A DNA stretch of 64,000 nucleotides from a virus (lineage: Duplodnaviria > Heunggongvirae > Uroviricota > Caudoviricetes), in the IMG/VR virus record IMGVR_UViG_2740892439_000009; one strand, 5' to 3'. The translations under genes and the position numbers were made by a program. Positions 15,117 through 63,556 of this stretch are shown here, piece by piece. Within the stretch, counting starts at the first letter, position 1; each line of letters begins with the position of its first letter. The notes under the pieces were generated by a model. The model was not told where the DNA came from, did no database searches, and was given only the letters and a program-made list of their open reading frames with translations.

Positions 15117-15159
15117 CTAATACTAGAAAACAATTTGTTTAAAAAACAAAGGAAAGCAC

Positions 15160-16098
15160 ATGACCGAACTTTGCCATACAGGACGCGGGCTGTCCGAAGA
15201 GTTTGATGAAGATTTCCAGAACAGACTGACGGCATATTTTTGTCGTGATCACGAGTTTCTTACTCGTGCGGGAGATCTGGTTGTGCCTAGCCAATTTGCC
15301 AATGCGGCCAATGCCATATTGGTTAATATGGTTTCGGGCTATTACCGTATGTACAAGAGCGCGCCTTCTTCATCTGCGATTCTGGATATGCTTAAGCGCG
15401 CGAAACGCGATAAGACCATCCGTGAGGAACTCTTCCCGGATGTTGTTGCTGCGTTTAAGCGCATCCTTGCAGAAAAATTGTCTGATACCTCGTACATGGT
15501 TGACCAGGTATCCACATTCGCAAAAAGTGTAGCGTTTGATGATGCTCTGATTAAAGCTGCTGAACTGAAAGAGAAGGGCGACTTTCAGGGGGCGATGGCA
15601 ATCATGGCCAAGGTTCAGCAGATAGGCTCGAACGAAGCGACCGGAATCTATGACTACTACACCTCCGCAAGTGAGCGATTGAAAGCGCGTGAATATGAGG
15701 CTTCAGAGGAGTATGTGCCAAACAGCATTACAACTGGACTCCCTCTGCTTGATAGATTGCTGTACCAAAAAGGCTGGGCGAAGCGTGAAATGGTGCTCTT
15801 CATGGGGTTCGCTAAATCCGGTAAATCGACCGCAATGGGTGAGTTTTCCATAAACGCAACACTTGCTGGCTACAATGTTCTGTATCTCTCGCTGGAGGTT
15901 CACACCACCATTTTATCCGACCGTTTTGATGCAAGATTGTCGGAGACAGAAATGTCCAGGCTGGTGGAACGGCGCGATGAGGTTCATCGTAAGTTGGCAG
16001 AGTTGGGAGCACGAAGGGGATTGGTAGTTTGTGGGTGGTTGAGCGTCCGTCAGGAAGTATGTCACCGGCAGATCTGGACCGTATGCTTAACAGCATGA
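15160..16098 (+). CDS. DnaB-like replicative helicase, N-terminal segment with Walker A (frame lost near 16020)
   Basis: ITTGLPLLDRLL..GFAKSGKST resembles the DnaB Walker A region; conserved start context AAAGGAAAGCACATG. Confidence 0.75.
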   Translation: MTELCHTGRGLSEEFDEDFQNRLTAYFCRDHEFLTRAGDLVVPSQFANAANAILVNMVSGYYRMYKSAPSSSAILDMLKRAKRDKTIREELFPDVVAAFKRILAEKLSDTSYMVDQVSTFAKSVAFDDALIKAAELKEKGDFQGAMAIMAKVQQIGSNEATGIYDYYTSASERLKAREYEASEEYVPNSITTGLPLLDRLLYQKGWAKREMVLFMGFAKSGKSTAMGEFSINATLAGYNVLYLSLEVHTTILSDRFDARLSETEMSRLVERRDEVHRKLAELGARRGLVVCGWLSVRQEVCHRQIWTVCLTA

Positions 16099-16499
16099 AA
16101 GCCAACGGCATGGTGCCTGATATGGTTGTTGTCGACTACGCAGATTTGATGCGTGCCAGTTATGACCTTCGTGATGATCGCGCCAACATTCGTAGTATCT
16201 ACACCGATTTACGTGCTCTTTATGACAAACATAACGTTGCTGGAATCACGGCATCGCAGACAAACCGTGAAGGTGGCGCGTCAGAAGTTGCCACAATGAT
16301 GCACGCCGCCGACAACATCGAAAAAGTACGTATTGCTGACCTGGTAATAACGATCAACAAAACCGAAGAAGAAGAAGCGAAAGGAGAGGCTCGTCTCTAC
16401 TTTGCTGGTTCACGTAACCAGCAGGGAGGGATCAGCATTCGTGTTAAACAAAACCTCGAACAAATGCGCTTCATTGAGCGAATCTTAGACGTTACCTAA
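16029..16499 (+). CDS. DnaB-like helicase C-terminal segment (-1 frame)
   Basis: DMVVVDYADLM and QTNREGG motifs typical of the DnaB C-terminal RecA-like domain. Confidence 0.7.
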   Translation: MWVVERPSGSMSPADLDRMLNSMKANGMVPDMVVVDYADLMRASYDLRDDRANIRSIYTDLRALYDKHNVAGITASQTNREGGASEVATMMHAADNIEKVRIADLVITINKTEEEEAKGEARLYFAGSRNQQGGISIRVKQNLEQMRFIERILDVT

Positions 16500-16504
16500 A
16501 AAAT

Positions 16505-16530
16505 AAGCGTGGAGAACACCTCCACGCTTG
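16505..16530 (+). terminator. Terminator hairpin after the helicase
   Basis: Perfect 9-bp inverted repeat AGCGTGGAG..CTCCACGCT with a 5-nt loop. Confidence 0.5.
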
Positions 16531-16577
16531 ATTCATTGGTGAAACAACTTTTCTTTTGCCAAACCACAAAAGAAAAA

Positions 16578-17762
16578 CACATGAACCTTTATATTATATC
16601 AACATTTAGGTTGGTCACAATATTGCCTGTTAAAAGTGGAATTATCGTGAGCGAGCTGAAAGAGCTAATTGCCGAATTAGATTTTGAACAATGGTTGGAT
16701 ACTGAAGGTATCGTTTATCGACGTGGAGGCGTGAGTGCTCGCGGTCGTGAAGTGAATATCAAAGAGTGTCCGGTATGCGGCAGCTCCAACTGGAAGGTAT
16801 ATTTCAATCTGACCAGTGGCGTCGGCAAATGCTTCGCTGGTGATCATCCCGAAGAGATTCAGTTCAATAAGCTGGTCTTCCTCAAGCACTACAGCAGTAA
16901 ATCACGACGACAGTTCGAGGAATATGTGCAGAACGCTCTTCTTTCCCAGGGGTGGGCACCAAAGAAAGAAGAGCTAGTGCTTGCAAGCACAGTCGAGTTA
17001 GAGGGGCCAGTTGCACTCCCTCGTCATTACGAACTTCCTATAGATGGCCGTCTTCCAGACTATCTGGTTGAACGAAACATATCACCTGAAATGGCAAAGT
17101 ATTTTGACCTACGATACTGCGTCGAAGGCAAGCACGCTTATGTAGATCCGTATACAGATCAGGTTAAAGGACAGATATTCGATATGCGAATACTGATACC
17201 GATTTACGATCTGGATGGGGTAATGAAGACATTTCAGGGACGAGACATTACCGGTACAGCAGAACGCCGCTACCTCTTTCCTATGCAGCTTCCAGCTTCA
17301 GGTAAATTTCTCTACAACGGCCATAATGCAGTCGGCAAACAGACTGTAGTTGTCTGTGAGGGTGCGTTCGATGTTATGGGGGTCAAACGAGCTATTTTCG
17401 ACGAAGAAACATTACGTGATTACGTGGAGCCAATAGGAACGTTCGGGATGCATCTATCTGGCAACACCACTCAGGATGCAGAAGATCAGTTGGGCGCGTT
17501 CCTGACGCTCAAGGCGCGTGGATTACGTAATGTGATCATGATGTGGGATAGTGAAAAGCAAGCTATACGCAACACTATGGCCGCAGCCAGGCGACTGACC
17601 AGTATCGGTCTTAATGTCAAAGTTGCGTGTTTGGGCGAGGAAGGACTCGACCCGGGCGGTGCAACGCCAGAACAAATTATCAAAGCCTATTATCGGGCAA
17701 AACCGTATACCAAACAGTTGGAGTTGCAAAGCAAGGTTTTGGGCATTAAGGCTCTATCGTAA
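16578..17762 (+). CDS. DnaG-like DNA primase (zinc-binding and TOPRIM domains)
   Basis: CPVCGSS..KCFAGDH zinc motif; TOPRIM-like VVVCEGAFDVMGV and MMWDSEKQ; conserved start context AAAGAAAAACACATG. Confidence 0.7.
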   Translation, partial: HMNLYIISTFRLVTILPVKSGIIVSELKELIAELDFEQWLDTEGIVYRRGGVSARGREVNIKECPVCGSSNWKVYFNLTSGVGKCFAGDHPEEIQFNKLVFLKHYSSKSRRQFEEYVQNALLSQGWAPKKEELVLASTVELEGPVALPRHYELPIDGRLPDYLVERNISPEMAKYFDLRYCVEGKHAYVDPYTDQVKGQIFDMRILIPIYDLDGVMKTFQGRDITGTAERRYLFPMQLPASGKFLYNGHNAVGKQTVVVCEGAFDVMGVKRAIFDEETLRDYVEPIGTFGMHLSGNTTQDAEDQLGAFLTLKARGLRNVIMMWDSEKQAIRNTMAAARRLTSIGLNVKVACLGEEGLDPGGATPEQIIKAYYRAKPYTKQLELQSKVLGIKALS

Positions 17763-17837
17763 CAAGTGCCGCCAAAATAAGTAGATGATTACTTATCTTT
17801 CTGTAAGAATACTTTCATCTGTTAGCTAGGAGTTGGT

Positions 17838-18620: not shown

Positions 18621-18675
18621 TCTCTCAGTGTGTCGTTTTTTACGCAAAGAATGATAGGTAAGTACAAGATTATTT

Positions 18676-19158
18676 GTGGCGGTGGTTGTGAAAGCTGATT
18701 TGTCAAAAATCCCCTCTATTTCAGGAAATAATGGTTATTCACTTCGTTGTGAGGAAGTAAAGATAAACGGTGAGTCGGCATATTGCAGCTATTCCGTTTG
18801 CCAGCACACCATTCTTGCCTTCAAAGAAAACCGTCTTCCTCGAACTTCATTCCAGTCGTGCGCAACCGCTATCAAAGCAGGCAAATGCAAGGCGTTAAAA
18901 ATGATGGTTGAAGAGATTCGTAAAGGAGAATCTCTGTATTTCGAAGATATGACCGCACTCATTAAGGAGGTTGAAGAACGGAATAAACAAGCCAGAACTA
19001 TAAAACGAAAACGTGACAGTGTAACGATTAATAGCATGGTTAAGAAGAGCGCCATATCACAAACAGCGATCACTGACGTGTATGCGGCGTTGCTTGAAGA
19101 AACAACAAAAAAAACACATGAGCAAATCGATCAACATATGGAGGCAAAACAACAATGA
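18676..19158 (+). CDS. Hypothetical protein
   Basis: ORF from the track; start uncertain. Confidence 0.4.
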   Translation: MAVVVKADLSKIPSISGNNGYSLRCEEVKINGESAYCSYSVCQHTILAFKENRLPRTSFQSCATAIKAGKCKALKMMVEEIRKGESLYFEDMTALIKEVEERNKQARTIKRKRDSVTINSMVKKSAISQTAITDVYAALLEETTKKTHEQIDQHMEAKQQ

Positions 19159-29775: not shown

Positions 29776-29870
29776 ATAAAACAGCCTTAATGATAAGTAA
29801 CCACTTACGATAGTTAATGGTATATTTATATAAGAAGTTGAACGCTCATTAGAGAACAAAGGAAAAACGC

Positions 29871-31106
29871 ATGACGACTACTGCACTGCAAAATGAAAAA
29901 AATCATTCTGATTACCTTGTTTGCAAGTGGTGCGGCAAATCATTTCACTATTTTAAGTCCCATGTAGCCAATGGTAATTGCGAGGGCATTCCTGAGTCAG
30001 TAAAAGATGCCGATCCTGACACCGTACTGAAAATGTACACAACGCAGTTTCCAGATGAACCAACGCTATCGAAAAAGGCACTTGATGCAATTCAAGCTAA
30101 ACGTGCCGAGCAAAAAAGCGAAATGGCCAAATCTTCTAGCTTGACCAGTAGCCCTGGCTACACAGGCACAGTTGAGTACAAGACAGATCTGGTCGCAGCT
30201 CACGAACTGCTAAACGTAACGGTGGAAGAACTCGGAACAAAACGTGGGACGCCGCTCATGGTTAGCGTCAACGTCAATACGCCGTATCCAGAGTTCGTTC
30301 CCGAAGTGAAGAAAGGCTACGTATATGGCGACTTCGAACTGATCAAAGATATTTTCATGATGCTTGAACTTGGCATACCTGGCTATTTGTGGGGTCATGC
30401 AGGAACAGGCAAATCGTCATTGCCTACACAGCTATGTGCTTTGCTCAATCGTCCGTTGATCCGTGCCCAACATACAGCATCAATGGAAGAGGCACATGTT
30501 ACGGGGCAAATTCTGGCGCGTGATGGCTCTACGTATTTCGAACCTGGCTTGCTTGCGCTCGCAATGAAGCATGGCTGGGTTTACCTCGCGGATGAATACG
30601 ACTTTGCGTTTCCACAAATTCTTGGCGTGTATCAGCCAGTGCTGGAAGGTGAAGCGTTAGTCATCAAAGAGGCGACTCCAGAATGGCGTCGCATTACTCC
30701 GCATGAACGGTTTGCTTTCATTGGCACTGGCAACACGAACGGATCTGGTGATGAAACCGGCTTGTACCAGGGTACAAACATCCAGAACGCCGCGAACTTT
30801 TCGCGTTTTGGCATCGTTTCGAATGTGAAATACATGAGCAAAGACGCAGAGATCAACATGTTGATAAATGCCGGTATCGTGGATGAATACGCAGAAAAGA
30901 TGGTTAAGTTTGCCGGTATCGTTCGCGATGGATACGAAGAACACCTTATCAGTCAGCCAATTGGCCCTCGTGAACTTTTGTTGTCGGCCAAGATTGGAAT
31001 GATGCGAGGCGACTTTGTGACAGGTATTGAGCGTTCTTTCATTAACAAACTCCCTTCAGCTTCTGCACAAGCGGCTCGTGAAGTTGTTCAAAAAATATTT
31101 GGTTGA
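29871..31106 (+). CDS. CobS/MoxR-like AAA+ ATPase
   Basis: Walker A GHAGTGKSS, Walker B VYLADEYD; conserved start context AAAGGAAAAACGCATG. Confidence 0.7.
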   Translation: MTTTALQNEKNHSDYLVCKWCGKSFHYFKSHVANGNCEGIPESVKDADPDTVLKMYTTQFPDEPTLSKKALDAIQAKRAEQKSEMAKSSSLTSSPGYTGTVEYKTDLVAAHELLNVTVEELGTKRGTPLMVSVNVNTPYPEFVPEVKKGYVYGDFELIKDIFMMLELGIPGYLWGHAGTGKSSLPTQLCALLNRPLIRAQHTASMEEAHVTGQILARDGSTYFEPGLLALAMKHGWVYLADEYDFAFPQILGVYQPVLEGEALVIKEATPEWRRITPHERFAFIGTGNTNGSGDETGLYQGTNIQNAANFSRFGIVSNVKYMSKDAEINMLINAGIVDEYAEKMVKFAGIVRDGYEEHLISQPIGPRELLLSAKIGMMRGDFVTGIERSFINKLPSASAQAAREVVQKIFG

Positions 31107-31285
31107 TCGTGCGTAAAGGATGTTTCGGCTCTCTTATCGCTGCTTCTGAAACTGGTAAGGCTTGTCTGGTGTGTCCAGACAAGCCCGATTGTCACCAATC
31201 AGCAAAAGAAGTTGCGATTTCGATGCATGGGAAGTTCGTAGCTTCCCCAATGACAAAATCAAAAAAACCAGAAAGGTAAAAACAC

Positions 31286-34200
31286 ATGAAGGCACTGATG
31301 GTTCGAACTGACTTCTCACTTGGGGAGTCGGCTTTAAAAGCAGAAAACGCGGTGAAGATTGCCAGAGAAGCTGGCTACACCGCTGTAATTTCAGCAGATA
31401 GCATGAATATTGCGAGCGTTATTCCACTACAACGTGCCGCTGGTGACGACATGGCGGTTATTTGTGGTGTGAAACTAAACATTGTTGATGATCCCACATA
31501 CGAGCACCGGGTTAAACTTGCTAAAGAATCTATGAGATGTATGGAATCATTAGAGCGGGGACGTAACTACTCGTTTACCGCTCTAATTAAAAATGAGCAA
31601 GGATATCGCGACATCTGCGAACTAATGACGGTGGCCAACACACGAGAACAGTTCTACTTTGTACCGCGTCTCTCGCTCGAACAGTTGGTTTCTACATATG
31701 CCAAAGGCAACATCATCCTGCTCACTTCCGACATCGGTAGCGTGTTCCAACGCAACGATTTTGCAAAAATCATAAGCTCACTGATTACAGCGGGCGGGAA
31801 AGACAACTTCTATAGCGTGGTTTATCCGCACCCTACCCCATTCTACGACCAGATTAACGTCCGGGCGATGAAAGTCGCCAGCGCATTGAAAATAGAGCCA
31901 GTGGCGTTCTATCCCGCTTATTACGAATCGATCGACGATGCAGACATTAAAGACATTGCGCACATGGTTACGAACAACATAAAAATCGACCAGCCGCATC
32001 GTCTGCGTATCCCCCACCAGCGAGATAACGCCATCAATGGTCGTCGCCATCTCCTTGAGGCGCTTAAAGCCTTCTCCGTTCGCATGGATGTGCCGGTAAC
32101 AGCTGCAATGGCCTCAACAACGCAGGACTCCATTATCGATGCCTGCACATGGCGCTGGCATGAATTGCCACCAGCACTGCCCAAGATGGCAGACGACGAA
32201 CCTGCAACGCTGATGAAACTGGCTGTTGCAGGGCTGCGTAAACGTCTTACCACAAAAGAGTTTGGATACACACCACCTGCTTCTGAGAACAGGGTTTATG
32301 TTGAGCGGCTAAAGTACGAAATGGACACGCTGACTCGCCTGGGATTCTGTGGTTACTTCCTGATGGTACGCGATCTGATGAATCACAGCCGTGAAACTGG
32401 CATTCCTGTCGGGCCTGGTCGTGGTTCCTCTGCCGGTTCTCTGGTGGCGTGGTGCATAGGCATAACCAACGTCGACCCAATCCGTCACGGTCTTCTGTTT
32501 GAGCGTTTCATCAACCCTGAGCGTCTCGACTTGCCGGATGCGGACTTGGACTTCAGCCAGGCACGTCGCCATGAGGTGATCGAGTATCTGAATGAACGCT
32601 ACGGCGAAGATTACGTTGCAGGCATTCCGAACTTCACCTATCTGGGCGCGGCATCTGCGCTGCGTGACACTGCACGTATTTACGGTGTCGATGCTGCGGA
32701 TATGGCGGTATCCAAAGAGTTCAAGAATATGGAGGACGACAGCCTGTCTCTGGAAGAGCTGCGCGAGCAACTGGCCAGCCTGGACAAATACGCCACGAAA
32801 AACCCGGAAGCGTTCAAAGCGGCGTGTAAGCTGCAAAGCCTGATGCGTGGTTTTGGTCGTCACGCTGCGGGGATGATCGTCGCTGGCGTTCCATTAGTAG
32901 AGCGCACGCCCGTCGAGCTGCGTGGCAATGCTCGATGTATTGCGTTCGATAAACGTTACTGCGAGGCGATGGGGCTGATTAAGTTGGACGTTCTCGGTCT
33001 GGCAACACTCGATCTTCTGGATAGCGCGAAACGCTACATCAAAGAGAGTACCGGTGAATACATCAATCTCGACGCTATCCCACTGGACGATCGCAAGGTT
33101 CTGGATGGGTTCGCTGCAGGGTACACGCAGGGCGTATTCCAGCTGGAGTCCGGCCCCATGCGTAAGCTGCTTAAAGATCTGGGCGGTGGCATCGAGCCAA
33201 TGAGTTTCAAAACCGTTGTCGCAACTACCGCCCTCTTCCGACCGGGACCGATTCAATCCGGCATGTTGGATGACTATGTTTCCGTTGCGAAAGGATTTAT
33301 GACGCCTACATCACTACATCCTGTCTTGGATGAACTGACCTCTGAAACAAATGGAGTGATTCTCTATCAGGAACAAACGATGAACGCAACAAGGCTTCTT
33401 GCTGGTTTCACAATGGCCGAGGCGGATGGTGTGCGTTCAGCAATCGGTAAGAAGAACATGGAAAAGATGAGGAGCATGGGTGAGAAATTTGTCATTCAGG
33501 CTCAAGCTGGGTGGATCGACGTAGAGCTTGAAAATGGCGCAATACAACGGATTCATCGCGCAGAACATTTTAAATGCGAGGACGGTACTCTGAGGACAGT
33601 TGAAGAGGCGTTGGAGCATGGAGTGAAGCTGCCAATGCCAGTTGTGCGCGTTACAACGTCACATCCAGGTCTGTCTGAGACGAAGGCAAAAGAGATATGG
33701 ACTGCATTTGAGAAAAACGGAGCCTATCAGTTCAATAAATCACACTCCGTTGCTTATTCTTTAATCAGTTATCAGTCTATGTGGCTAAAGACGCACTACC
33801 CTGCTGAGTTCTTCGCAGCTGCGCTCACCATTCTGGGCGAGGATAAGCATCAGGGGCTGGTGAAGGATGCGCTGACCTATGGCATTCGCGTATTGCCACC
33901 AGACGTTAATGTGTCATCTAACCGAATTGAGATCCGCACACTCGAAGACGGCAGTCAGGCACTGTATGCGCCATTCTCTGCTGTGAAAGGCTGTTCTGAA
34001 AATGGTTGTCAGGCAATTATGCGTGCGCGTGAGAAAGTTGGTGGCAAATTCGAGTCAGTGGCACAATTCGATGAAGCGGTCGAGAAGCGTGCATGTAACA
34101 GTCGTGTACGCGAGTCGCTTCATAAAGTAGGGGCTTTTGCGTCAATTGAGCCAGGCAGTCTGCCAGCAACTGATCCTGAACGACTGCGCGACCAGGCTGA

Positions 34201-34804
34201 GCTGATGGGCAATCTCATCATTGACGCTGTTAAAGCATCACGTCCGTTCGAAATGAATCCTAAGCGTTCTGCCGAAATCAACGTACTCATGACACGTATG
34301 GCGGCTGAAATGGGCTTGGGTGAGGAGTTGATACGCCCGACTATTGGTATTAAACCCAAAATCATGATCATTCTGGACAATGCGAACGGCAATGACGCTC
34401 GTACCGGCTACTTCATGGAGAACGGATACGACGACTTTAAGGCAAAACTACTGACAGTTGGAGATCTGCGCATGGGCGATCTTTATGTCACGGGTGTTTG
34501 TAAGAAGGTTAAGGACAAAGAGAAAGACTATACCAAAGACGAGATAGGCCAGTTCACAGACTTTATGCGGGAAGAAATTAATCTTGTACGACCAACCTAC
34601 ATTTTGACGTGTGGTAGTCGTTCAACCGCACTATTTAACAATAAGAGTAAACCATCAGATCTGATTGGTCGTAAGGAGTACTTCCCAGAGCTTGATGCAA
34701 CCGTCTTCTACGGATTTAACCCGAATATCCTGTACTTCCGACCGGAAGAAGGAGAGCGACTGGAGGCCATTCTGGCTGATATCGCGGAGACAATAAATAA
34801 GTAA
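31286..34804 (+). CDS. dnaE: DNA polymerase III alpha subunit (DnaE-type, family C) with extra internal and C-terminal segments
   Basis: PHP N-terminus; core motifs GFCGYFLMVRDL, GPGRGSSAGSLVAWCIGIT, ATTALFRPGP, AYQFNKSHSVAYSL; 1172 aa. Confidence 0.9.
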   Translation: MKALMVRTDFSLGESALKAENAVKIAREAGYTAVISADSMNIASVIPLQRAAGDDMAVICGVKLNIVDDPTYEHRVKLAKESMRCMESLERGRNYSFTALIKNEQGYRDICELMTVANTREQFYFVPRLSLEQLVSTYAKGNIILLTSDIGSVFQRNDFAKIISSLITAGGKDNFYSVVYPHPTPFYDQINVRAMKVASALKIEPVAFYPAYYESIDDADIKDIAHMVTNNIKIDQPHRLRIPHQRDNAINGRRHLLEALKAFSVRMDVPVTAAMASTTQDSIIDACTWRWHELPPALPKMADDEPATLMKLAVAGLRKRLTTKEFGYTPPASENRVYVERLKYEMDTLTRLGFCGYFLMVRDLMNHSRETGIPVGPGRGSSAGSLVAWCIGITNVDPIRHGLLFERFINPERLDLPDADLDFSQARRHEVIEYLNERYGEDYVAGIPNFTYLGAASALRDTARIYGVDAADMAVSKEFKNMEDDSLSLEELREQLASLDKYATKNPEAFKAACKLQSLMRGFGRHAAGMIVAGVPLVERTPVELRGNARCIAFDKRYCEAMGLIKLDVLGLATLDLLDSAKRYIKESTGEYINLDAIPLDDRKVLDGFAAGYTQGVFQLESGPMRKLLKDLGGGIEPMSFKTVVATTALFRPGPIQSGMLDDYVSVAKGFMTPTSLHPVLDELTSETNGVILYQEQTMNATRLLAGFTMAEADGVRSAIGKKNMEKMRSMGEKFVIQAQAGWIDVELENGAIQRIHRAEHFKCEDGTLRTVEEALEHGVKLPMPVVRVTTSHPGLSETKAKEIWTAFEKNGAYQFNKSHSVAYSLISYQSMWLKTHYPAEFFAAALTILGEDKHQGLVKDALTYGIRVLPPDVNVSSNRIEIRTLEDGSQALYAPFSAVKGCSENGCQAIMRAREKVGGKFESVAQFDEAVEKRACNSRVRESLHKVGAFASIEPGSLPATDPERLRDQAELMGNLIIDAVKASRPFEMNPKRSAEINVLMTRMAAEMGLGEELIRPTIGIKPKIMIILDNANGNDARTGYFMENGYDDFKAKLLTVGDLRMGDLYVTGVCKKVKDKEKDYTKDEIGQFTDFMREEINLVRPTYILTCGSRSTALFNNKSKPSDLIGRKEYFPELDATVFYGFNPNILYFRPEEGERLEAILADIAETINK

Positions 34805-34836: not shown

Positions 34837-35107
34837 AGAATTATGGCGCTTGTTGAGGAAGTCACTCCTCTTACGCACTTTGTTTTGCCATGCCGGCAGT
34901 TAGCTTCTGCCTTTGACTATTCATGCGGCAACCCCGCATTTCGCCACAATGGGCAATTCACTTTTATGGAATAAACTGGCCGTTGTGTCGATTTAATTAG
35001 CATGGCCTTACCATGCTAATTTATTCAACTTGTACAATCCTACAAATCTATCCACTCAGGCTTACACCGTCTTCGTTATTGTAGAAATGAGGATCATCAG
35101 CGTTGAA

Positions 35108-35323
35108 TCAGCTTAGAGCAACGACATTTGCTGCTGCTGGGCCTTTAGCCCCATTCTCGATAGAGAATTCGACCTGCTGGCCTTCTTCCAAAGTGCGGAA
35201 ATTATTACTCTGAATTGCCGAAAAATGTACAAAAACATCTTTACTGCCATCAGCAGGAGAAATAAAGCCAAAGCCTTTATCAGAGTTAAACCATTTTACT
35301 AAACCAGTCATTTTATTAGACAT
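35108..35323 (-). CDS. cspA: Cold-shock protein, CspA family
   Basis: [38 protein letters not shown] is near-identical in pattern to E. coli CspA; SD AAGAAGG; long upstream leader; terminator-like hairpin near 34995-35020. Confidence 0.85.
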
Positions 35324-35652
35324 AGATATTACCTTCTTAATTTTGTGAGCCACATAGTGCGGCGAGAATTTGATCTGTATAGATTGGGACTTACTTAGGC
35401 ACTTAAGGAGGAGACTCACGAAGAAGGGAAATCAGAAGATAACACTGAACTGAGACTGCTTTACTAAAACTGCTTACATAAGGTCTGTCTTGCAAACCAA
35501 CGATGCTATTAACGCATACCCCTTCTTTTCATGCAACCTTTATTTTTCAAAGATAACTAATTTTTGTCACCATTGGTTTAGTAAACGTTAACGAACCAGA
35601 CGATGCCAGACACCTTTACAGAGAACAGATGCCCGCCAATTGGCGGGCATCA

Positions 35653-37187: not shown

Positions 37188-37304
37188 TTTTTGATAGATA
37201 ATAAGTAAGTACTGATCTATCATTTAACAGCTCGAAAGAGCCACGAATGAACGAAAGCCCAACGCGCATAGCGCCATCGGCCAAATCACAACAAGGAGAA
37301 ACAC

Positions 37305-38333
37305 ATGTCTAAGACATTACTTGATTTGCTTAACAAAACTCGTGAAGACATTGCCGCCAAACGTGGCAACAACGTTGATCTGACTCGCTTAAAAGACGGC
37401 GTCAACTATATCCGCATCTTCCCGAATAAAGACGACCCAAACGGTAAGTTCTTCCAGACTTTCGGTATGCACTACGTTAAGTATCAGAACGAGGAAGGTA
37501 AAGAAGCAACCAACGCTTATATTTGTGAGCAACATACTCACGGTCGCGCTTGTCAGCTATGCGAAATGGTGATGGAAGGTCGCGCTCGTCACAAGGGTAA
37601 CAAAGCAATGGAAGAACGCATCGGTCAAATGCGTGCCACTCCTCGCTACCTGGTCAACGGCATTCTTTCTGCTCGTGAGGATTTCGCAGATGCTGAGAAA
37701 TGCCAGTTAATCGAGCTGCCGTCTACTGTATTCGATGATATCTGCAAAGCAATCACCGAAGACATCGCTGATGATATCGGCAATCCACTGAGCAAAGAGG
37801 AAGGCTACGCATTCCTGATTAAACGTACTGGCTCTGGTCGCGATACCAAATATGACGTCTCGCCTAAGCGTAAAGTCTACAAAGGCGATATCGAAGATAA
37901 ATTCTGGAACACCCAGCATGATCTGATCGCATACGCAAATCAGGCTGATGAAACTCGTCTTCTGTCGACAGTTCGCACTATGGGTCGTCTGATTGGCATC
38001 GCTGCACCAACTGCCGCAGCATCTGCACCAGCAATTTCCTCAACCGCGAAAACATCGGCTGCGGCACTACCTGGATTTGGCTCTGTCACTGGTCATACAG
38101 AAGGAGCGACGGCTGTAGCAACCGCGCACACACCGGCTTCTGAACCAACCAGTCTGGTTGATGAAGAAATCCTCCGTGCCGTTGAAACTGAATTTAAACC
38201 AGAGGCAAGTTCCGCTGCCGTTGCCGTATCAGTCAAAGAGTCTGAAGCAGTCGCAGCGACATCTGTAGCAACCGCATCTGCGACGGAAGATGAAGGTCTG
38301 GATGACCTACTGAGAGAACTGGACTCTCTGTAA
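37305..38333 (+). CDS. gp32-like single-stranded DNA-binding protein
   Basis: N-terminal IRIFPNKDDPNGKFF, Cys/His cluster CEQHTHGRACQLCE, acidic C-terminal tail DDLLRELDSL; layout as in T4 gp32. Confidence 0.7.
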   Translation: MSKTLLDLLNKTREDIAAKRGNNVDLTRLKDGVNYIRIFPNKDDPNGKFFQTFGMHYVKYQNEEGKEATNAYICEQHTHGRACQLCEMVMEGRARHKGNKAMEERIGQMRATPRYLVNGILSAREDFADAEKCQLIELPSTVFDDICKAITEDIADDIGNPLSKEEGYAFLIKRTGSGRDTKYDVSPKRKVYKGDIEDKFWNTQHDLIAYANQADETRLLSTVRTMGRLIGIAAPTAAASAPAISSTAKTSAAALPGFGSVTGHTEGATAVATAHTPASEPTSLVDEEILRAVETEFKPEASSAAVAVSVKESEAVAATSVATASATEDEGLDDLLRELDSL

Positions 38334-40711: not shown

Positions 40712-40771
40712 TCTTGAAAATACATAAGTACTTACTTATTATTTTCGCATAACAACCACATAGGAAAACAC

Positions 40772-40972
40772 ATGATCAAAATCTATCTATTGGCAGTAGC
40801 CACAGGCCTTTCAGTGGCTCTCATCTACGGTTTACTGGTTCCATCGCTGATTTCTACCAAGAGTGATTTAGCCGTCATGTTTGGAGTTGTCGTTGGTTTT
40901 GGCGCTCCAGTAATCGGTCTTATTGGTGGTCGTAAGTTTATTAACTCATTAATCAAAGCAAAGGGGAAATAA
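40772..40972 (+). CDS. Small membrane protein
   Basis: Two hydrophobic segments; conserved start context. Confidence 0.45.
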   Translation: MIKIYLLAVATGLSVALIYGLLVPSLISTKSDLAVMFGVVVGFGAPVIGLIGGRKFINSLIKAKGK

Positions 40973-41821: not shown

Positions 41822-41848
41822 AGGCGTCCAGTTGGACGCCTTTTTTAT
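41822..41848 (+). terminator. Rho-independent terminator
   Basis: AGGCGTCC..GGACGCCT hairpin followed by TTTTTTAT. Confidence 0.6.
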
Positions 41849-41896
41849 CGCAATTATCTTATTAAGAAAACAATTTGTTTAAAGGGTCAAGAAAAT

Positions 41897-42322: not shown

Positions 42323-42377
42323 TCGCCTATTCATAACTAACAAAATAAGTAAACACTAACCACAAAAGGAAAAACAC

Positions 42378-42653
42378 ATGAGAGTTTTAGTTCGAATCGT
42401 TACCAGCACTGTCTATGACGTGTTTCCGCTTTTTATGGTCAAAGCCGATGGCCTTAACGACGAAGAAACTGACGCGCTGATCCAGCGTATTCTCGTTGAA
42501 TATACAGGTCATGACGCTGATTCAGTGATGGTTGATGATGATGGTGTTTGTTGGCATAACGGCAACTGTTGGTACGTAGAAGAGACTCAACAAATCAGTG
42601 ATGAAGATGCCGCACATCTTGAGCGTATTTTAAGCATCAGCACTTTTGAGTGA
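42378..42653 (+). CDS. Hypothetical protein
   Basis: Conserved start context AAAGGAAAAACACATG. Confidence 0.5.
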   Translation: MRVLVRIVTSTVYDVFPLFMVKADGLNDEETDALIQRILVEYTGHDADSVMVDDDGVCWHNGNCWYVEETQQISDEDAAHLERILSISTFE

Positions 42654-46055: not shown

Positions 46056-46309
46056 CCCTCCAGATCGCATATTGGCGTAGATAAAATCTACGCCTCCTCA
46101 AAATAGCTCTCATAGCGTTCTACAGTGATCCTGTCTTATTTTTAGTCATACAGACAAGCAAAGTTGCACCACAACAAATAGGTATATACTTACTTATAAA
46201 TTTTGTATATTAAGTCGCTCGTTTCATTCCTAACATACCGTTATGCATAGTTGTTTACCTTCTCATTGCTCTTAGAATTTGTATCAAAATAACCACAAAG
46301 GAAAAACAC

Positions 46310-47395
46310 ATGACTTTGCCATACGGCGTCATTTCTGACTGCCACTACCACAAATGGGATGCGTTCTCCACGACGAACGCTGAGGGGCTTAACTCCAGAC
46401 TTGAAATACAGTTGGAAGCAACGAAAGAAGCAGCCATCGCCATGAAGAAGGCCGGTTGTAAGTACATGTTGGTTGCCGGTGATACATTTCACGTCCGAGG
46501 AACTGTGTCCCCTTCTGTTTTGCATTACGTAACTGAAACGTACAAGTGGATTATCAACGAGCTTGATCTGACAGTAGTAATGCTGGCCGGTAATCACGAT
46601 CTTGAAACCAACGATTCAGTATATAGCGCCAACGCAGCAGCATCGCTGAGTTCTATCGGCGTGGTAATCGTATGTGGTAAGCGCCCACACTCAATAAAAA
46701 TTGGTGATGTGACTGTCCACCTGATTAGCTGGCGTAACAATCATGCGGAGCTTATCAGCGATCTGAAAACATTACGTAAGAGCGTAGAAGGTGATAATCA
46801 TGACGTTGTTATCCATACATCCATTAACAAAGCCATTCCAACAATGCCTGACGTCGGTATCGATGCGCAGGAGTTAAAGGATATCGGCTTTCGTCTCGTG
46901 CTTAGTGGGCATTACCACAACCACAAAGAGGTCATTCCTGGAGTTATCAGTGTCGGTGCACTGACTCATCAAAATTGGGGAGATGTTGGATCTCTGGCTG
47001 GCTACATGATCGTAAACCCGGACGGCAGTTTCAGTCACTACGAAACCAGTGCGCCTAAATTCATTAACCTGGAAGATGATGTTGCTGATGACCAAATTCG
47101 CGGCAACTACGTGCGTTTCCGCGCCGTAATTGAGAACGATGAAGAAGGCATTAAGTACCAGAACATCCTCAAAACAATGGGTGCAAAAGGTGTCGTGTGC
47201 AACTTCATCCGTAAGTCATCAATGATGGAAGGGACAGCCAGCACAACTGAAACCAGCAAAATCGATAGCCTGGGAGAGTCGGTATCTGCTTATTGCAAGA
47301 TTGTCCACGATACTGACGGCGGATTTGATCTGAGCAAATTGGATATTTTGTGTCAGGAAATCCTCACCGAAGCGGAGAGTTCGGAGGCTGTGTGA
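46310..47395 (+). CDS. SbcD/Mre11-like nuclease (T4 gp47-like)
   Basis: Metallophosphoesterase motifs SDCHY, GDTFH, GNHD, GHYH; conserved start context. Confidence 0.8.
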   Translation: MTLPYGVISDCHYHKWDAFSTTNAEGLNSRLEIQLEATKEAAIAMKKAGCKYMLVAGDTFHVRGTVSPSVLHYVTETYKWIINELDLTVVMLAGNHDLETNDSVYSANAAASLSSIGVVIVCGKRPHSIKIGDVTVHLISWRNNHAELISDLKTLRKSVEGDNHDVVIHTSINKAIPTMPDVGIDAQELKDIGFRLVLSGHYHNHKEVIPGVISVGALTHQNWGDVGSLAGYMIVNPDGSFSHYETSAPKFINLEDDVADDQIRGNYVRFRAVIENDEEGIKYQNILKTMGAKGVVCNFIRKSSMMEGTASTTETSKIDSLGESVSAYCKIVHDTDGGFDLSKLDILCQEILTEAESSEAV

Positions 47396-50853: not shown

Positions 50854-50926
50854 TTTCATTGATAGGTAAGTGCTTATCTATTAACATGGGCCACTATATT
50901 TAGTGGCCCTCTTTATTTGGTGATAC

Positions 50927-53241: not shown

Positions 53242-53346
53242 CATATGGTGGGGTGTATCCCCACCTTCTCTTTGATTTGTAAGCCTTGTTTAAACAAATA
53301 AGATAACAACTTGTTTAAACACATCAAAAAGCAAAAGGAAAAACAC

Positions 53347-54489
53347 ATGTCATATTCAACGTTCCGTTTGGGTGCTAATGATGCAACCAAAGAGCCTATG
53401 TTCCTCGGACAATCTGTCAACGTGGCACGTTACGATCAGCAAAAATACCGTGATTTTGAAAAGTTGATTGAACGTCAATTGTCTTTCTTCTGGCGGCCGG
53501 AAGAAGTTGATATTTCGAGCGATCGTATCGACTTCAACACGAAGCTGCGGGACCACGAACGTCACATTTTTCTGAGCAATCTCCGTTATCAAACGTTACT
53601 CGATTCAGTTCAGGGACGTAGCCCAAATGCAACGCTGCTGCCGCTTATCTCTATTCCTGAACTGGAAACGTGGGTTGAAACATGGTCTTTCTCTGAGACT
53701 ATCCATAGCCGCAGCTACACCCACATTATTCGTGGCATGGTGGACGATCCGAGCATTGTTTTTGACGGTATTGTTACGGATGAAGAAATCATCAACCGAG
53801 CGATCAGTATCTCTGCTGAATATGACAGGCTTTATGGGATGACCTGCGAGCGCCAGTCGTTAGGTGAGAAAGAGTTTGAACGTCTGTACGTAAATGAATA
53901 TGGCTGGGAGCCATACCCTTTGCACCGTCAGCTTTTCCGCACGTTGGTGTCCATTAATGCGCTTGAGGCGATCCGTTTCTATGTAAGTTTTGCATGTACG
54001 TTTGCCTTTGGCGAACGGAAGTTGCTTGAGGGTAACACCAAAATTATGCGCTTTATTGCCCGTGATGAAGCTCTGCATTGCGAAGGAACTGAACGCATGA
54101 TCCGTTTCATGCGTACCGGTCGCGAAGGTTTATTGTGGAAAGAGATTGCTGCTGATGAAGAAAACGTCATTTACGACACCATGAAATCAGTCGCCGAACA
54201 AGAAATGAACTGGGCAGACTATCTCTTCAAAGACGGTTCGATGATTGGTTTAAACGCGGATATTCTGAAGACCTATGTAAAATACCGAACCAATCTGGCT
54301 ATGAATCGTCTTGGCCTGAAGGCTTTATTTCCAGAAGTTACCACAGATCCGCTGGTCTGGATGAACAAGTGGTTGTTAACCGACACACTGCAAATTGCAC
54401 CACAAGAGGCAGAGCAAAGCACATATCTGGTAGGTCAGATCGATTCTACCGTGGACAAGGCTTCTCTAAGCCAGTTTGCAGACCTGTAA
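53347..54489 (+). CDS. nrdB: Ribonucleotide reductase beta subunit NrdB
   Basis: Near-colinear with E. coli NrdB, including the iron-centre/tyrosyl-radical region [30 protein letters not shown]. Confidence 0.9.
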
Positions 54490-59288: not shown

Positions 59289-59448
59289 AACAAAAGCCTG
59301 CTTTAAAGAGAGTTTGAAGCAGGCTTTCTTTTAAAGAACAGTCGCCTTTCAATCATTTCCTGCCTGTATTTAATACTTTTCCGCCTGATAGGTTTAGTCA
59401 AAATGTAGCCATCGAAACGCAAATGCAACTAAACAGAAGGAGACTTAC

Positions 59449-60258: not shown

Positions 60259-60440
60259 CGTTCCCCTACTTAAAATAAAGCCCATAGAGAGCTTTATAGT
60301 GCTGGGTAAGCTAACCCATACCCAGCACCACAAAAACGCGCCAGAGAGCTTCTTGTTCGCATTTCTGGCGCGTTTTATTTGATTGCCATACATAAAATCA
60401 AATGCAAAAATAGGTAATCACTTACCTATCGAGAAAGAAG

Positions 60441-61034
60441 ATGATTGCAGCCGAAAAAATCAAACAGCGAAAGCGCGACAACTCTCTTCGTGACCTCTGG
60501 AGAACACCTGATTGGCTGTTTTCTGCCATTCAACGTTATCTTGGAGTGACATTTGATGTTGACGTTGCCTGCAACAAGGACAATGCAAAGCTGCCTAATT
60601 TCATAGGCGTTGAGCGCGATGCTTTGAAATCTGAATGGGGACAGCCAGGTACAATTGCCTTCCTCAATCCACCCTACTCCAAAATCTCCCCCTGGATTGA
60701 TGCTGCTATACGTGAGCAGGCTCGCGGAGTTACAACAGTGATGCTAATTCCTCAATCCCTCGATACAAAGTGGTATGAGCGTGCAACAGAGTATGCGAAT
60801 GAGACGATTATTCTGTCTGGTGGCCGCGTAGCGTTTGTCGAGCCTGACGTCAATTTGGGTCAGGTAGAAGTAAACATCAACCCCGGTGGCAGTATGCTCG
60901 TTGTTTTTCGAGGGTTTTGTCAGGACGCTGGGCACTCTATAAGCAAGATCCCTTTGGACGTCATGAAAAGTCTGGGAGGGTATGACCCTGCGAATGTGAT
61001 CAGGAAAAAAAGACCATCAAAGAAGGCTGCTTAG
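60441..61034 (+). CDS. DNA N6-adenine methyltransferase, phage Dam family
   Basis: WRTPDWLF and NPPYS motifs. Confidence 0.7.
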   Translation: MIAAEKIKQRKRDNSLRDLWRTPDWLFSAIQRYLGVTFDVDVACNKDNAKLPNFIGVERDALKSEWGQPGTIAFLNPPYSKISPWIDAAIREQARGVTTVMLIPQSLDTKWYERATEYANETIILSGGRVAFVEPDVNLGQVEVNINPGGSMLVVFRGFCQDAGHSISKIPLDVMKSLGGYDPANVIRKKRPSKKAA

Positions 61035-61219
61035 TTTGCTCTGGCGTCTGTAATTAGCTGCTTCTGTATATATAAATAACTACATATTAATTATTAATAT
61101 ACGGAAGCAGGCTGTTTTGTATCAGAGACTCCCAGACCTGAACATCACTACAGAATCCACTAGAACCCCTTCCCAGACGCTTTAAAATCGATTTTATGAA
61201 CCACTTTAAGGAAACCAAC

Positions 61220-61450
61220 ATGTCATACCCGACTAATGTCGTTGCGCTCGTAGAGAGCGATTTTCTGGCCCAGGCTCGTGAAATGATGAAAGATCGTGAG
61301 CAGGCTTTCAACTTGTACGAGTGGGCAATTAAGTGCTTGCATCTTGGCGAGCATCGCGAACTTGTTGAACAGCTTTTAGGTGAGTTGATCAATGAGGTGT
61401 TTGCCTTGAATGTTCAACTACATGGTCGAGAAAATAATCAATCACAATGA
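61220..61450 (+). CDS. Hypothetical small protein
   Basis: 77-aa ORF with AAGGAAACCAACATG context. Confidence 0.4.
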   Translation: MSYPTNVVALVESDFLAQAREMMKDREQAFNLYEWAIKCLHLGEHRELVEQLLGELINEVFALNVQLHGRENNQSQ

Positions 61451-62029
61451 TAGATAAGTACAAACTATTCATAAAGTGAATTGTAAGTGCTAAGATCTGA
61501 TAGTTTCCAGTCGTAGACTGGAGGCTCGACCTGATGGGTGGGGGTAAGCGTCACTGGCGTCAGGTTTAAAAAAGCTCACTACCAGCGTAGAACCGGTGCC
61601 GTATAGGTGTCGGGGAAGGGGGAACCAAAGTGAGCAGAGACAAGGGTCACTTTATGATTGTCGAGTCTGGGGTGTTTCGAGAGGTTGAATCCAGTACTCC
61701 CCTTCATAAAGTGTGGGAAGATCTCGGTTCTGGGGTGCTGTCATCCATAACTTCCCAAGTCTAAGCTGGCAGTAGACTTAGACCATAGCTTTTCAGGTTA
61801 TGAAACGACCAGGTTGGTGAGGAATTTTATACTCACCTCCCTGGGAGAGTATTACCTGAAAAGACAACCTCTCACTTCGTTCGAGGTGAACTTCACTCAC
61901 TTCGTTCGTTCAGTTCAGGTTTATAAAAACCTGTTCTGGGAAGTAATTTGTTTATTTTAATAATTATTAACACGCACGCGTGTGCGCACGCGCGAGGAAA
62001 AATCGGCGCGGCGCTTGATTCAGGAGTTT

Positions 62030-62622
62030 ATATGACGACGAAGACACCAGCCCGATCGCAAGCAAAAACTCGCAAAAAAGACAAAAACAAAAATTCTCCC
62101 CGCACCAATCCCACAACGTCTGTCGTAGAGTTCAATCCCCAGCTTAAAACCGTGAAAATCTTTAGTGATGGCTCTTGCCTTAAAAATCCGGGTGGCCCGG
62201 GCGGTTACGGTATCGTTCTCCAGTATCGTGGTGAGGAACGCGAGTTCTCAGATGGTTTTCATAGCACCACCAATAACCGCATGGAGATGATGGGGGCACT
62301 TATCGGGCTGGAGCGTTTGAAATATCCATGCAACGTTATTTTGCACTCTGATAGCCAGTATCTGAAAAACGGCATGACACAGTGGATGAAATGGTGGAAA
62401 CGCAATGGATGGATGACTTCTGACAAAAAACCGGTAAAGAATGTTGATCTGTGGAAGCGTCTGGATGAGGCCGCAAGTCGACATAATGTTCGCTGGAAGT
62501 GGGTTAAAGGTCACGCCGGGCATCGTGAAAATGAAATATGTGATCGACTCGCGAAGATCGCAGCTTTTTCAGCAGCAGATATGCCTCACAAGAAAGATAT
62601 TGGTTTTGTTTATAACAAATAG
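62030..62622 (+). CDS. rnhA: Ribonuclease HI
   Basis: [52 protein letters not shown]; CAGGAG SD. Confidence 0.85.
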
Positions 62623-62770
62623 TAAGTAAGTGTTTACCTATCATTTTAAATCATGTATCTTATCGGCGTCAGGATGACAATGTGTCGGTAAGACACAGTT
62701 CCAGGATGGAACGAGAAAGGCGGCTGGCGATTGCCAGCCGCAACTCTTTCTGACACTGGATGGAGTCCAC

Positions 62771-63265
62771 ATGGCACGTCAAACCTATTTCACTTCTGCA
62801 ACTAAACGTCCTCGTTCTTTACGTCAAATTTTGGCCGAATTATTTAGCGGTCGTGTTATGTCACGTCTTGATGAACTAGAGACTACCGTTCGGTTGCTGA
62901 ATGAACGTTTAGATAATCAAGCGTCAGTTGTTGCGAACGTGGGGGCGATTGTTGCCTCTGGTTCTTCACGCGAAGCGAAAAATGCACGGCCTTTAGTGAA
63001 GGAGAAAAACAACAAGGACAGTTCGAATGGAAAATTTTCAAAGAAAGAGGCTGAAACCAATGGCCTACGTTCTCATTATAGTTTCACTGGCGACGGTAGC
63101 CGTTCCAGCCGGTCAGAGCCTTTTGATGCCGGATTCATCCATCACCACACCTTCGTCGACGACAATTACCACCACTCCAGTGGAGCGTCCTGTCACTCTG
63201 GATGGGATGGCGGTGGATGCGATACCTCAAGTTCATCCAGTTACTCAGGATCATGCTGTGACTAA
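62771..63265 (+). CDS. Hypothetical protein; C-terminal third is low-complexity and overlaps another ORF
   Basis: Plausible coiled-coil N-terminus; 3' portion overlaps the more protein-like 63027-63278 frame. Confidence 0.3.
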   Translation: MARQTYFTSATKRPRSLRQILAELFSGRVMSRLDELETTVRLLNERLDNQASVVANVGAIVASGSSREAKNARPLVKEKNNKDSSNGKFSKKEAETNGLRSHYSFTGDGSRSSRSEPFDAGFIHHHTFVDDNYHHSSGASCHSGWDGGGCDTSSSSSYSGSCCD

Positions 63266-63274
63266 GGCGGTTGT

Positions 63275-63463
63275 ATGAACTGGTTTTCAAATCACTTTGG
63301 AAAAATTTGGCTGGCAATTCTTGCCCTCATGGCCGCCGGTTGGGTATCGAACATTATAAAACTTGTTTGCTCTGGCGATCTCCAGTTTCAGGCTGGTATG
63401 ACCTTGGCTCGTGTAGTTGGGATTTTTATTTTTCCAGTCGGTTCGGTACTTGGTTATTTCTGA
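63275..63463 (+). CDS. Small membrane protein
   Basis: 62-aa ORF with two hydrophobic segments. Confidence 0.4.
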   Translation: MNWFSNHFGKIWLAILALMAAGWVSNIIKLVCSGDLQFQAGMTLARVVGIFIFPVGSVLGYF

Positions 63464-63556
63464 CGGTTGTTAGTGCATATGCATTGACCGTCTTTGCGTA
63501 AGCAATTTGTTTAACTAGAAAACAACTTGTTTTGACAAATAACAAAAGGAAAACAC

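Follow-up and report, generated by a model that had tools for sequence, protein, structure and literature searches.

A class-specific start-site leader and two families of candidate operators in an SSU5/pHCM2-type phage-plasmid

Introduction

About ten replication, recombination and nucleotide-metabolism genes of a tailed-phage genome begin with almost the same leader, and palindromes lie a short way upstream of several of them. Do the two repeats form one regulatory device, and does it act in the messenger RNA or in the DNA? We address this question in a 64,000-nt stretch of DNA (IMG/VR record IMGVR_UViG_2740892439_000009; Caudoviricetes), called the window below. An earlier reading of the letters (the sequence-only reading) had taken the start context and the palindromes as marks of the same genes, which might be a co-regulated class or carry a translational operator. 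Our analysis suggests that they are, on balance probably, two adjacent and separate control layers: repressor operators distributed over the genome and, next to the start codon, an unstructured initiation leader specific to one class of genes.

The dnaE gene of the window (31286-34804) is 94.6% identical to that of Escherichia phage Cyrano and 86.7% to that of Salmonella phage SSU5. A 12-kb stretch matches 809 plasmid records, with a top identity of 98.7% (E. coli plasmids) and about 79% identity to Salmonella Typhi pHCM2 and to Y. pestis pMT1-like, Enterobacter, Cronobacter and Klebsiella plasmids. The gene order is that of Cyrano: tail and lysis genes, parA, helicase, primase, ligase, tRNAs, integrase and repressor; then cobT, cobS, dnaE, uvsY-like, gp32-like, exonuclease and recA/uvsX-like genes; then repA, sbcCD, nrdAB and nucleotide-metabolism genes. 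The dnaE identity, the plasmid matches and the gene order (SSU5, Cyrano, pHCM2 and pMT1 compared) identify the window as an SSU5/pHCM2-type phage-plasmid whose nearest relative is Cyrano. Relatives from six genera served as comparison genomes.

Phage-plasmids of the SSU5/pHCM2/pMT1 type are common in E. coli, Klebsiella, Salmonella Typhi, Enterobacter and Yersinia pestis, and titles and abstracts report phage-plasmids that carry resistance genes. The literature searched holds neither an account of the switch between plasmid maintenance and lytic growth in this family nor a description of the motifs reported here. The motifs are, as far as we found, undescribed for the family; they add a further case to types of phage and plasmid regulation that are already known and imply no new regulatory principle. 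The operator families and the promoter cassette give a first map of transcription units and supply DNA probes for finding repressors, while the leader would be a compact natural unstructured ribosome-binding module and a candidate point of class-specific translational control.

Results and discussion

A leader shared by the starts of one gene class

The start-site leader has the consensus (AACCAC)AAAGGAAAAACAC-ATG and is found at about ten replication, recombination and nucleotide-metabolism genes. Allowing two mismatches, AAGGAAAAACACATG occurs eight times in the window, where 0.18 matches are expected, always on the plus strand and always at the start of an open reading frame (ORF). The most invariant core is the 12-mer GAAAAACACATG, with 10 matches at up to one mismatch against 0.63 expected. 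Nine of these are gene starts (Table 1), and the tenth, at 19118, sits within an ORF and opens a frame of only 19 codons. The helicase start is a looser member of the set, and a longer version, AACCACAAAGGAAAAACACATG, is common to four leaders. CAC at positions -3 to -1 precedes 10 of 64 curated starts and only 22 of 2282 other ATGs (odds ratio 19, p = 4.5e-9). Over all starts, positions -1 to -3 hold just 0.09-0.14 bits, and the leader motif therefore belongs to a subset of genes. The almost invariant start context that the sequence-only reading ascribed to at least 12 genes is thus real, but it extends to about ten. Enrichment, which that reading had proposed to check, is seen for the palindrome described below as well (it is also present at 20 sites in pHCM2). 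Both motifs occur much more often than expected and persist in orthologues at about 79% genome identity amid diverging flanks, which bears out the suggestion that they go beyond a generic Shine-Dalgarno (SD) sequence.

The tenth match belongs to the segment 19109-19177, where AAAAAACACATG lies within the ORF upstream of ligase and the 19-codon frame overlaps the ligase start. pHCM2 holds AGAAAACACATG at the equivalent place (16114). A small upstream ORF is one possible explanation; another is that the conservation is simply that of the enclosing coding sequence.

The motifs also correct some gene starts. In the pHCM2 primase orthologue AAAAAACACATG stands in frame 69 nt upstream of the annotated start, and, judged by leader motif and palindrome, the starts of primase and helicase in pHCM2 (PGAP annotation) and of primase in Cyrano appear to be annotated too far downstream (motif positions: pHCM2 locus 19885-19896 and 21315-21326; Cyrano primase locus 6844).

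Table 1. Positions of leaders, palindromes, control regions and candidate regulator genes in the window
Feature	Position	Strand	Sequence and remarks
Leader, helicase (looser member; start 15160)	15148..15162	+	AAAGGAAAGCACATG
Leader, primase	16562..16583	+	AACCACAAAAGAAAAACACATG; implies start 16581
Leader, cobS (start 29871)	29859..29873	+	AAGGAAAAACGCATG; ACAC in four relatives, AAGGAAAGCACATG in Cronobacter
Leader, dnaE (start 31286)	31274..31288	+	AGGTAAAAACACATG; AAAGGTAAAAACACATG invariant in 7 genomes
Leader, gp32-like single-stranded DNA-binding protein (start 37305)	37293..37307	+	AAGGAGAAACACATG; preceded by conserved two-hairpin leader 37230-37282
Leader, small membrane protein (start 40772)	40754..40774	+	AACCACATAGGAAAACACATG
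Leader, 91-aa protein (start 42378)	42358..42380	+	AACCACAAAAGGAAAAACACATG
Leader, sbcD (start 46310)	46291..46312	+	AACCACAAAGGAAAAACACATG
Leader, nrdB (start 53347)	53335..53349	+	AAGGAAAAACACATG
Leader, TerB/TciA-like gene (start 63557)	63545..63559	+	AAAGGAAAACACATG
Palindrome B, parA	11100..11112	+	AAACAAGTTGTTT; 48 nt before ATG; GATAAT 5 nt downstream
Palindrome B, helicase	15128..15140	+	AAACAATTTGTTT
Degenerate B-like site (2 mismatches), primase	16542..16554	+	follows hairpin 16505-16529
cobT control region	27582..27648	+	hairpin 27582-27614; extended -10 TGCTACATT 27615-27623; B 27636-27648
Palindrome B, cobT	27636..27648	+	AAATAATTTGTTT in window; GAAAACAAATTGTTTTAA in relatives
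DUF7238 gene control region	41822..41880	+	terminator 41822-41841; -10-like AATTAT; B 41868-41880
nrdB control region	53247..53316	+	terminator 53247-53265; TTGTTTAAACAA 53286-53297; B 53304-53316
Paired palindrome B, TerB/TciA-like gene front	63500..63532	+	63500-63512 and 63520-63532, 20 nt apart
Predicted A-type promoter	40714..40742	+	TTGAAA, 17-nt spacer, TATTAT; palindrome A TACATAAGTACTTACTTA 40721-40738
Other palindrome A sites	8086, 14345, 24952, 27135, 37202, 42673, 46179, 50863, 60411, 62623		
Weaker palindrome A sites	17778, 21300, 29794, 42346, 55574		
Helix-turn-helix (HTH) repressor-like gene, 128 aa	26719..27105	-	palindrome A site 30 nt upstream of start
ParA partner, 119 aa	11816..12175	+	ribbon-helix-helix-like pattern KSRTMSLEDEYfeLL...FTRSDVIRAAI; N-terminal basic tail

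What might such a leader do? It consists of an AAGGA SD sequence, a fixed spacer of 6-7 nt and flanks that are nearly all A and C. A spacer of this length is near the E. coli optimum. Over positions -22 to -1 the ten motif genes have on average 13.5 A, 4.7 C, 1.2 T and 2.6 G, the G's lying in the SD, compared with 7.3 A, 3.4 C, 5.7 T and 5.5 G in other genes. The minimum free energy over -40 to +30 is -5.6 kcal/mol for the motif genes and -11.1 kcal/mol for the others (p = 1.3e-4), and the unpaired probability over -18 to +6 is 0.65 against 0.50 (p = 2.9e-5). The genes concerned are promoter-proximal replication, recombination, nucleotide-metabolism and accessory genes, and the leader is conserved in their orthologues from six genera. 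The most economical reading is that the shared (AACCAC)AAAGGAAAAACAC-AUG forms an unstructured, U-poor initiation region, free of other start codons, which would load ribosomes efficiently on promoter-proximal early genes. A U-poor leader might also resist RNase E, which is speculation.

Several observations weigh against a leader selected for openness only. The low-structure statistic is partly circular, given that A-rich sequence always folds weakly; orthologues retain the exact leader sequence, where selection on structure would permit A and C to be exchanged freely; the few leader substitutions that they do show bring in G or T; and the capsid gene of pHCM2 lacks the leader. At sbcD, seven genomes agree over a block of about 30 nt except for a 1-nt indel and one C/T difference, while the remaining leader has diverged, and at nrdB AAACACATG is kept in five genera while the SD shifts from AAGGA to GAGGG. 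This retention of the sbcD block, and of AAACAC-ATG at nrdB despite the changed SD, points to a sequence-specific constraint. The leader motif likewise has no match in the tail and lysis genes of the window or in the structural region of pHCM2, and its absence from capsid, tail, lysis and structural genes argues that the leader is more than the ribosome-binding site best suited to the host.

Exact conservation and restriction to one class keep a sequence-specific factor, a functional analogue of RegA, in play as a possibility. In its full form this alternative makes GAAAAACAC-AUG a translational operator at which a phage RNA-binding repressor, RegA-like in function but not homologous, shuts the replication class off later in infection. 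The class-specificity just described (absence from tail, lysis, structural and capsid genes) and the conservation across genera of an exact sequence, beyond composition, would both fit. So would the retention of the 12-mer beside differing SD cores (AAGGA, AAAGA at primase, AGAGA at two Cyrano genes) and a membership of helicase, primase, polymerase, single-stranded DNA-binding protein, SbcD and NrdB that is analogous to the T4 RegA regulon. However, a Pfam scan of 20 small window proteins gave neither RegA (Translat_reg) nor any other RNA-binding family, and PHROGs and NCBIfam scans of overlapping candidate sets gave no RNA-binding family; the small-ORF scans with the three collections yielded only an HTH repressor-like protein, DUF families and TerB. 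Genes of the same class, namely the uvsY-like, recA/uvsX-like, nrdA and ligase genes, also do without the motif. We consider such an operator unlikely, though not far-fetched.

A factor of the host, CsrA or the distal face of Hfq, could recognise the leader in place of a phage protein. CsrA binds the consensus ACA-R-GGA and the Hfq distal face binds (ARN)n tracts. ACAAGGA or ACAAAGGA does occur at gp32, sbcD, cobS, helicase and cobT, and AACAAAAGGAAAAAC fits (ARN)5. Each leader, however, has a single GGA where CsrA dimers normally use two sites, the (ARN) register breaks for AAAGGA variants such as that of sbcD, and any A-rich SD region resembles these loose consensus sequences, so that recognition by such a factor is very improbable. 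Nor did the window or pHCM2 1-50 kb contain, apart from the motif sites, a complementary run of 12 nt or more from which an antisense or small-RNA partner of the leader might derive. The conserved, class-specific leader is thus best described as a translation-initiation module, separate from the palindrome to which we now turn.

One member of the set has a further element. The gp32-like leader (37230-37282) contains two conserved hairpins, GCUC-GAAA-GAGC and GCC..GCGC-AUA-GCGC..GGC, which fold at -17.3 kcal/mol (z = -2.2); the unstructured start-site leader comes after them. The layout recalls the autoregulatory operator of T4 gene 32.

A palindrome within a predicted promoter cassette

The palindrome noted upstream of some of these genes, here called palindrome B, has the unit AAACAAnTTGTTT, usually as (A)GAAAACAAnTTGTTT(A/T) and in its fuller form as (G)AAAACAAnTTGTTT(TC). 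At up to one mismatch the window holds seven sites (11100, 15128, 27636, 41868, 53304, 63500 and 63520) against 0.51 expected. There are 20 sites in pHCM2, made up of 15 in the first 50 kb, three at cobT, helicase and parA, and two at the gene for the small terminase subunit; no site lies inside the structural operons of pHCM2. The right arm of Cyrano has 12 sites and the Y. pestis pMT1-like locus six. The motif is widespread, with at least 120 matches to AGAAAACAAnTTGTTTAA in viral contigs, many of them in contigs of about 90-112 kb.

Palindrome B is kept at orthologous positions while the flanks diverge, at cobT in seven of seven genomes and at nrdB in five of five, and the parA and helicase sites are also present in Cyrano and pHCM2. 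In the cobT control region the hairpin shows compensatory changes, and hairpin, TG-n-hexamer (six of seven genomes) and palindrome are all conserved while the spacers between them diverge. At nrdB the TTGTTTAAACAA at 53286 is not retained as a palindrome in other genera; the adjoining GATAACAAnTTGTTT at 53304 is.

The four places at which the sequence-only reading had reported palindromes all hold them. They were said to lie 20-30 nt upstream of the genes, whereas the B sites begin 29-57 nt before the ATG, and the palindrome and the start context do not mark the same genes. Palindrome B stands without the start motif at parA (11148), cobT (27668) and the DUF7238 gene (41897), and the two features are therefore separable. 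A gene class, as proposed, is supported for the leader, which is confined to one class of genes, but not for palindrome B, whose sites also precede the gene for the small terminase subunit, parA, cobT and numerous small accessory genes.

The surroundings of the sites suggest what palindrome B is for. In pHCM2 (PGAP starts) most of the 15 sites lie in a near-identical cassette of about 40 nt, which runs from a terminator T-run through TGnGATAAT (an extended -10 element), aACACCAACAAG and AAAACAAnTTGTTTA to the SD and ATG. A -10-like hexamer (A2, T6, at least four of six positions matching) starts exactly 19-20 nt upstream at 14 of 33 oriented B sites, and the TG extension occurs at nine sites compared with 1.2% of random control positions. 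The cassette consensus is ...aaTAAcAC.AA.aAGAAAACAA.TTGTTTAa. The predicted extended -10 elements at the fixed offset are TGCGATAAT, TGAGATAAT, TGGGAAAAT, TGTGAAAAT and TGCTACATT, and none has a clear -35. In a second arrangement palindrome B lies upstream, with its TTGTTT arm 18-19 nt before TGTGAAAAT, that is, at the -35 position. Some promoters carry both copies, 51 bp apart (Cyrano 22851/22902; pHCM2 10781/10730). In the window, sites follow terminators or hairpins at 10976-10995, 41822-41841 and 53247-53265.

We propose that palindrome B serves a dimeric DNA-binding protein as an operator in double-stranded DNA and forms part of a recurring promoter cassette of the order terminator, extended -10 (TGnGATAAT or TGnTAnAnT), about 13 nt (aACACCAACAAGA), palindrome, SD and ATG. 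If transcription starts about 7 nt past the -10 hexamer, as we infer from the -10 matches, the palindrome would span about +8 to +20, the position of lac O1. In the upstream copy the TTGTTT arm would occupy the -35 position, and a protein bound to either would block RNA polymerase.

Could palindrome B act instead in the mRNA, as a 5'-proximal hairpin that stabilises the message or as a structured translational operator, as the sequence-only reading had allowed? It would belong to roughly the first 20 nt of the transcript, and two variants, with AAAUAA and AAGCAA arms, would retain G-U wobble pairs. The RNA hairpins are marginal, however, with folding energies of only -0.5 to -1.8 kcal/mol. Over more than 40 sites the variants change one arm without compensation in the other and break the pairing (e.g., TTGGTT, CGTGTTT), so that it is the sequence that is conserved rather than the pairing. 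Moreover, copies upstream of the -10 would not be transcribed from that promoter. We reject the RNA hairpin, which is extremely improbable given a fold of at most -1.8 kcal/mol and no covariation, and with it the translational operator in the palindrome, which behaves as a DNA element at a fixed offset from an extended -10. The weak RNA fold, the uncompensated one-arm variants and the placement where a bound protein would block the polymerase make a DNA operator the most likely role of palindrome B. The proposed co-regulation is thus partly supported, and would be chiefly transcriptional, through two distributed operator families (palindrome B and the palindrome A described below) in repeated promoter cassettes.

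Two points weigh against this promoter model. The window sites 11100, 15128, 53304 and 63520 have no convincing -10 at the canonical offset, and the literature searched contains no start-site, binding or expression experiment on the SSU5/pHCM2-type family, so that the promoters are predictions. Among known elements, a sigma-70 -35/-10 pair, a MotA box and IHF, Fis, LexA or NrdR sites were compared by eye, as consensus sequences, with palindrome B, and none fits. Rfam, run over the window, returned only a cspA thermoregulator and tRNAs, and no family at the motif sites.

The similarity between sites could also be mainly a matter of common descent, if cassettes were copied or exchanged between gene fronts by recombination, with no need for a shared regulator. 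In the accessory regions some 40 nt of the B cassettes are nearly the same, and the cassettes flank small genes that stand singly between terminators; within the E. coli lineage, gene 42378 has a leader nearer to that of sbcD than to those of its own orthologues. Against this, the SD and spacer downstream of palindrome B differ between cassettes, and the start motif is therefore not carried by the B cassette. The cobT, nrdB, sbcD and dnaE sites, furthermore, occupy the same orthologous position in six genera amid diverging flanks, which argues for purifying selection rather than recent copying. Descent as the main explanation is therefore quite improbable.

A second palindrome and expression in the lysogen

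A second palindrome, here called palindrome A (TAGGTAAGYRCTTACCTA, 18 bp), had been missed by the sequence-only reading. The window has 10 sites compared with 0.02 expected, or 12 compared with 0.75 at a looser threshold. Palindrome A fills the 17-nt spacer of predicted sigma-70-like promoters, between TTGAnA and TATCAT or TATTAT; besides the example in Table 1, such promoters read TAGATA-N17-TATCAT at 37195 and TTGATA-N17-TAACAT at 50859. In pHCM2 it also stands ahead of the holin, tail-fibre and capsid-region genes. The two palindromes are mutually exclusive at any single gene, and all start-motif genes except dnaE have an A or a B site 32-131 nt upstream.

Palindrome A is probably the operator of a master repressor, a second operator family placed in the -35/-10 spacer of most other operons, and is a better marker of co-regulated transcription units than palindrome B. 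Lytic genes downstream of either operator type would be silent while the element persists as a plasmid in the lysogen. In the LF82/Cyrano lysogen transcriptome, the one relevant data set that we found, the expression values are 21 for helicase, 11 for primase, 7.8 for cobT, 9 for the gp32-like gene and 7.5 for sbcD, compared with 96 for the repressor, 50 for parA and 89 for the parA partner (PMC9928086, supplementary file 2). Genes behind A and B sites are thus off in the plasmid state, which is consistent with repression without proving it. We found no time-resolved lytic expression data in the literature searched.

Candidate binding proteins

Which proteins might bind the two operators? For palindrome A the candidate is the HTH repressor-like protein of gene 26719-27105. 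Besides the site upstream of its start, A half-sites are scattered over 27135-27335, the divergent control region of this gene, and its Cyrano orthologue, CYRAN_45, is expressed in the lysogen (PMC9928086).

For palindrome B a speculative candidate is the small partner of ParA, which is expressed in the lysogen and has a B site in its own operon; if so, the partition protein would act as a global repressor in the manner of ParG, omega or KorB. The protein has a weak NCBIfam match to aCcr1, a ribbon-helix-helix family (E = 2.3e-4, below the curated cutoff). Its AlphaFold2 monomer, from a 12-sequence alignment, consists of helices only at a pLDDT of 63, and with this low-confidence model a Foldseek search of the PDB, like a profile search of PDB sequences, gave no match. 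The partner has matches in 797 plasmids, and the genera listed for them do not include Yersinia. Six B sites nevertheless persist at the Y. pestis pMT1-like locus, and it may be that pMT1 lost the partner only recently. The Cyrano annotation calls this gene, the one after parA, a 'RelE/ParE putative toxin', whereas its sequence resembles a ribbon-helix-helix centromere-binding or repressor protein (the partner in type Ib partition). Proteins of 70-71 aa encoded at 27357-27569 and 20637-20852 are further candidate binders. A centromere array at parA was considered and rejected: there is a single B copy and no repeat array upstream of parA.

One may combine the two speculative links, so that the ParA partner binds palindrome B as a global repressor while an unrecognised translational repressor, RegA-like in function, uses the GAAAAACAC-AUG leader as its operator; that both hold is clearly unlikely. 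If true, the ParA partner would silence the packaging operon, many accessory genes and the phage's replication genes (helicase, primase, cobT, nrdB) in the plasmid state, and each link taken singly would add a regulatory connection that is new for these clinically widespread phage-plasmids.

Comparison with known systems

The nearest parallels to palindrome B are the sites of the plasmid-encoded global repressors KorB of RK2/RP4 and omega of pSM19035. Like the KorB site OB (TTTAGCSGCTAAA), it is a 13-bp palindrome with a 6-1-6 layout, and like the KorB and omega sites it occurs about a dozen to twenty times per replicon, near many promoters including that of the partition operon. The ParA partner is small and ribbon-helix-helix-like by its sequence pattern only, and is not a KorB/ParB homologue. 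The B sites also differ from those of both systems in lying mainly just downstream of the inferred start or over the -35, and the genes controlled would be phage lytic genes.

Many short operator copies spread over a large temperate-phage genome are also known as the C1 operators of P1 and the stoperators of mycobacteriophage L5 (Cluster A). There, too, sites lie in short intergenic gaps, oriented with transcription, and one repressor silences many units directly. Palindromes A and B differ in their symmetry from the asymmetric P1 and L5 sites, and here two putative operator families coexist. At the level of the single promoter the arrangement resembles lac O1, centred at about +11, in that a palindromic operator sits directly downstream of a sigma-70 start, and pairs 51 bp apart would allow looping; unlike at lac, the starts follow from -10 matches only, and the predicted promoters are extended -10 promoters without a clear -35.

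As in the T4 RegA regulon, early replication and recombination genes share an A-rich region from SD to AUG (GGAAAAUUAUG-like in T4, GGAAAAACACAUG here), and the module here also includes gp32-like, UvsX/UvsY-like and gp46/47-like genes. It differs in that the window proteins scanned include no RegA homologue and in that the motif, a putative operator, contains C and is U-poor where RegA sites are A/U-rich. Finally, near-identical promoter cassettes beside terminators, bracketing single small accessory genes, recall the T4-type promoter-early stem-loop (PeSL) cassettes and morons, and like these could promote gene shuffling. Unlike PeSL, palindrome B forms no stable stem-loop or terminator and lies downstream of the promoter.

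Other features of the window

Compared with Cyrano, the helicase gene (15160-16499) lacks one nucleotide near 16010 (GGGAGCACG in the window, GGGAGCCACG in Cyrano) and is thereby split into ORFs at 15160-16098 and 16029-16499; it is either a frameshift pseudogene or the product of a sequencing error. The spacer between cobS and dnaE (31107-31285, 179 nt) is conserved nearly base for base across seven genomes and contains two hairpins without T-runs, GGCTTGTCTGG..CCAGACAAGCC and GGGAAG..CTTCCC, the second with a variable loop.

Four tRNA genes (Asn-GTT, Tyr-GTA, Thr-TGT and Ser-TGA) lie at 22080-22636, where the Cyrano annotation has Asn, Thr and Ser only. ORFs of 403 and 288 aa on the minus strand (22814-24918) are absent from the Cyrano annotation at the matching place. 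Conversely, CYRAN_43 (555 nt), expressed 723-fold above background in the LF82 lysogen, is missing here between the glutaredoxin and integrase genes. Between dnaE and hicAB-like genes, on the minus strand at 35083-35501, the window carries a full-length cspA thermoregulator (Rfam RF01766, 185.7 bits) together with a cold-shock protein gene, which has the appearance of a host-type accessory gene, or moron.

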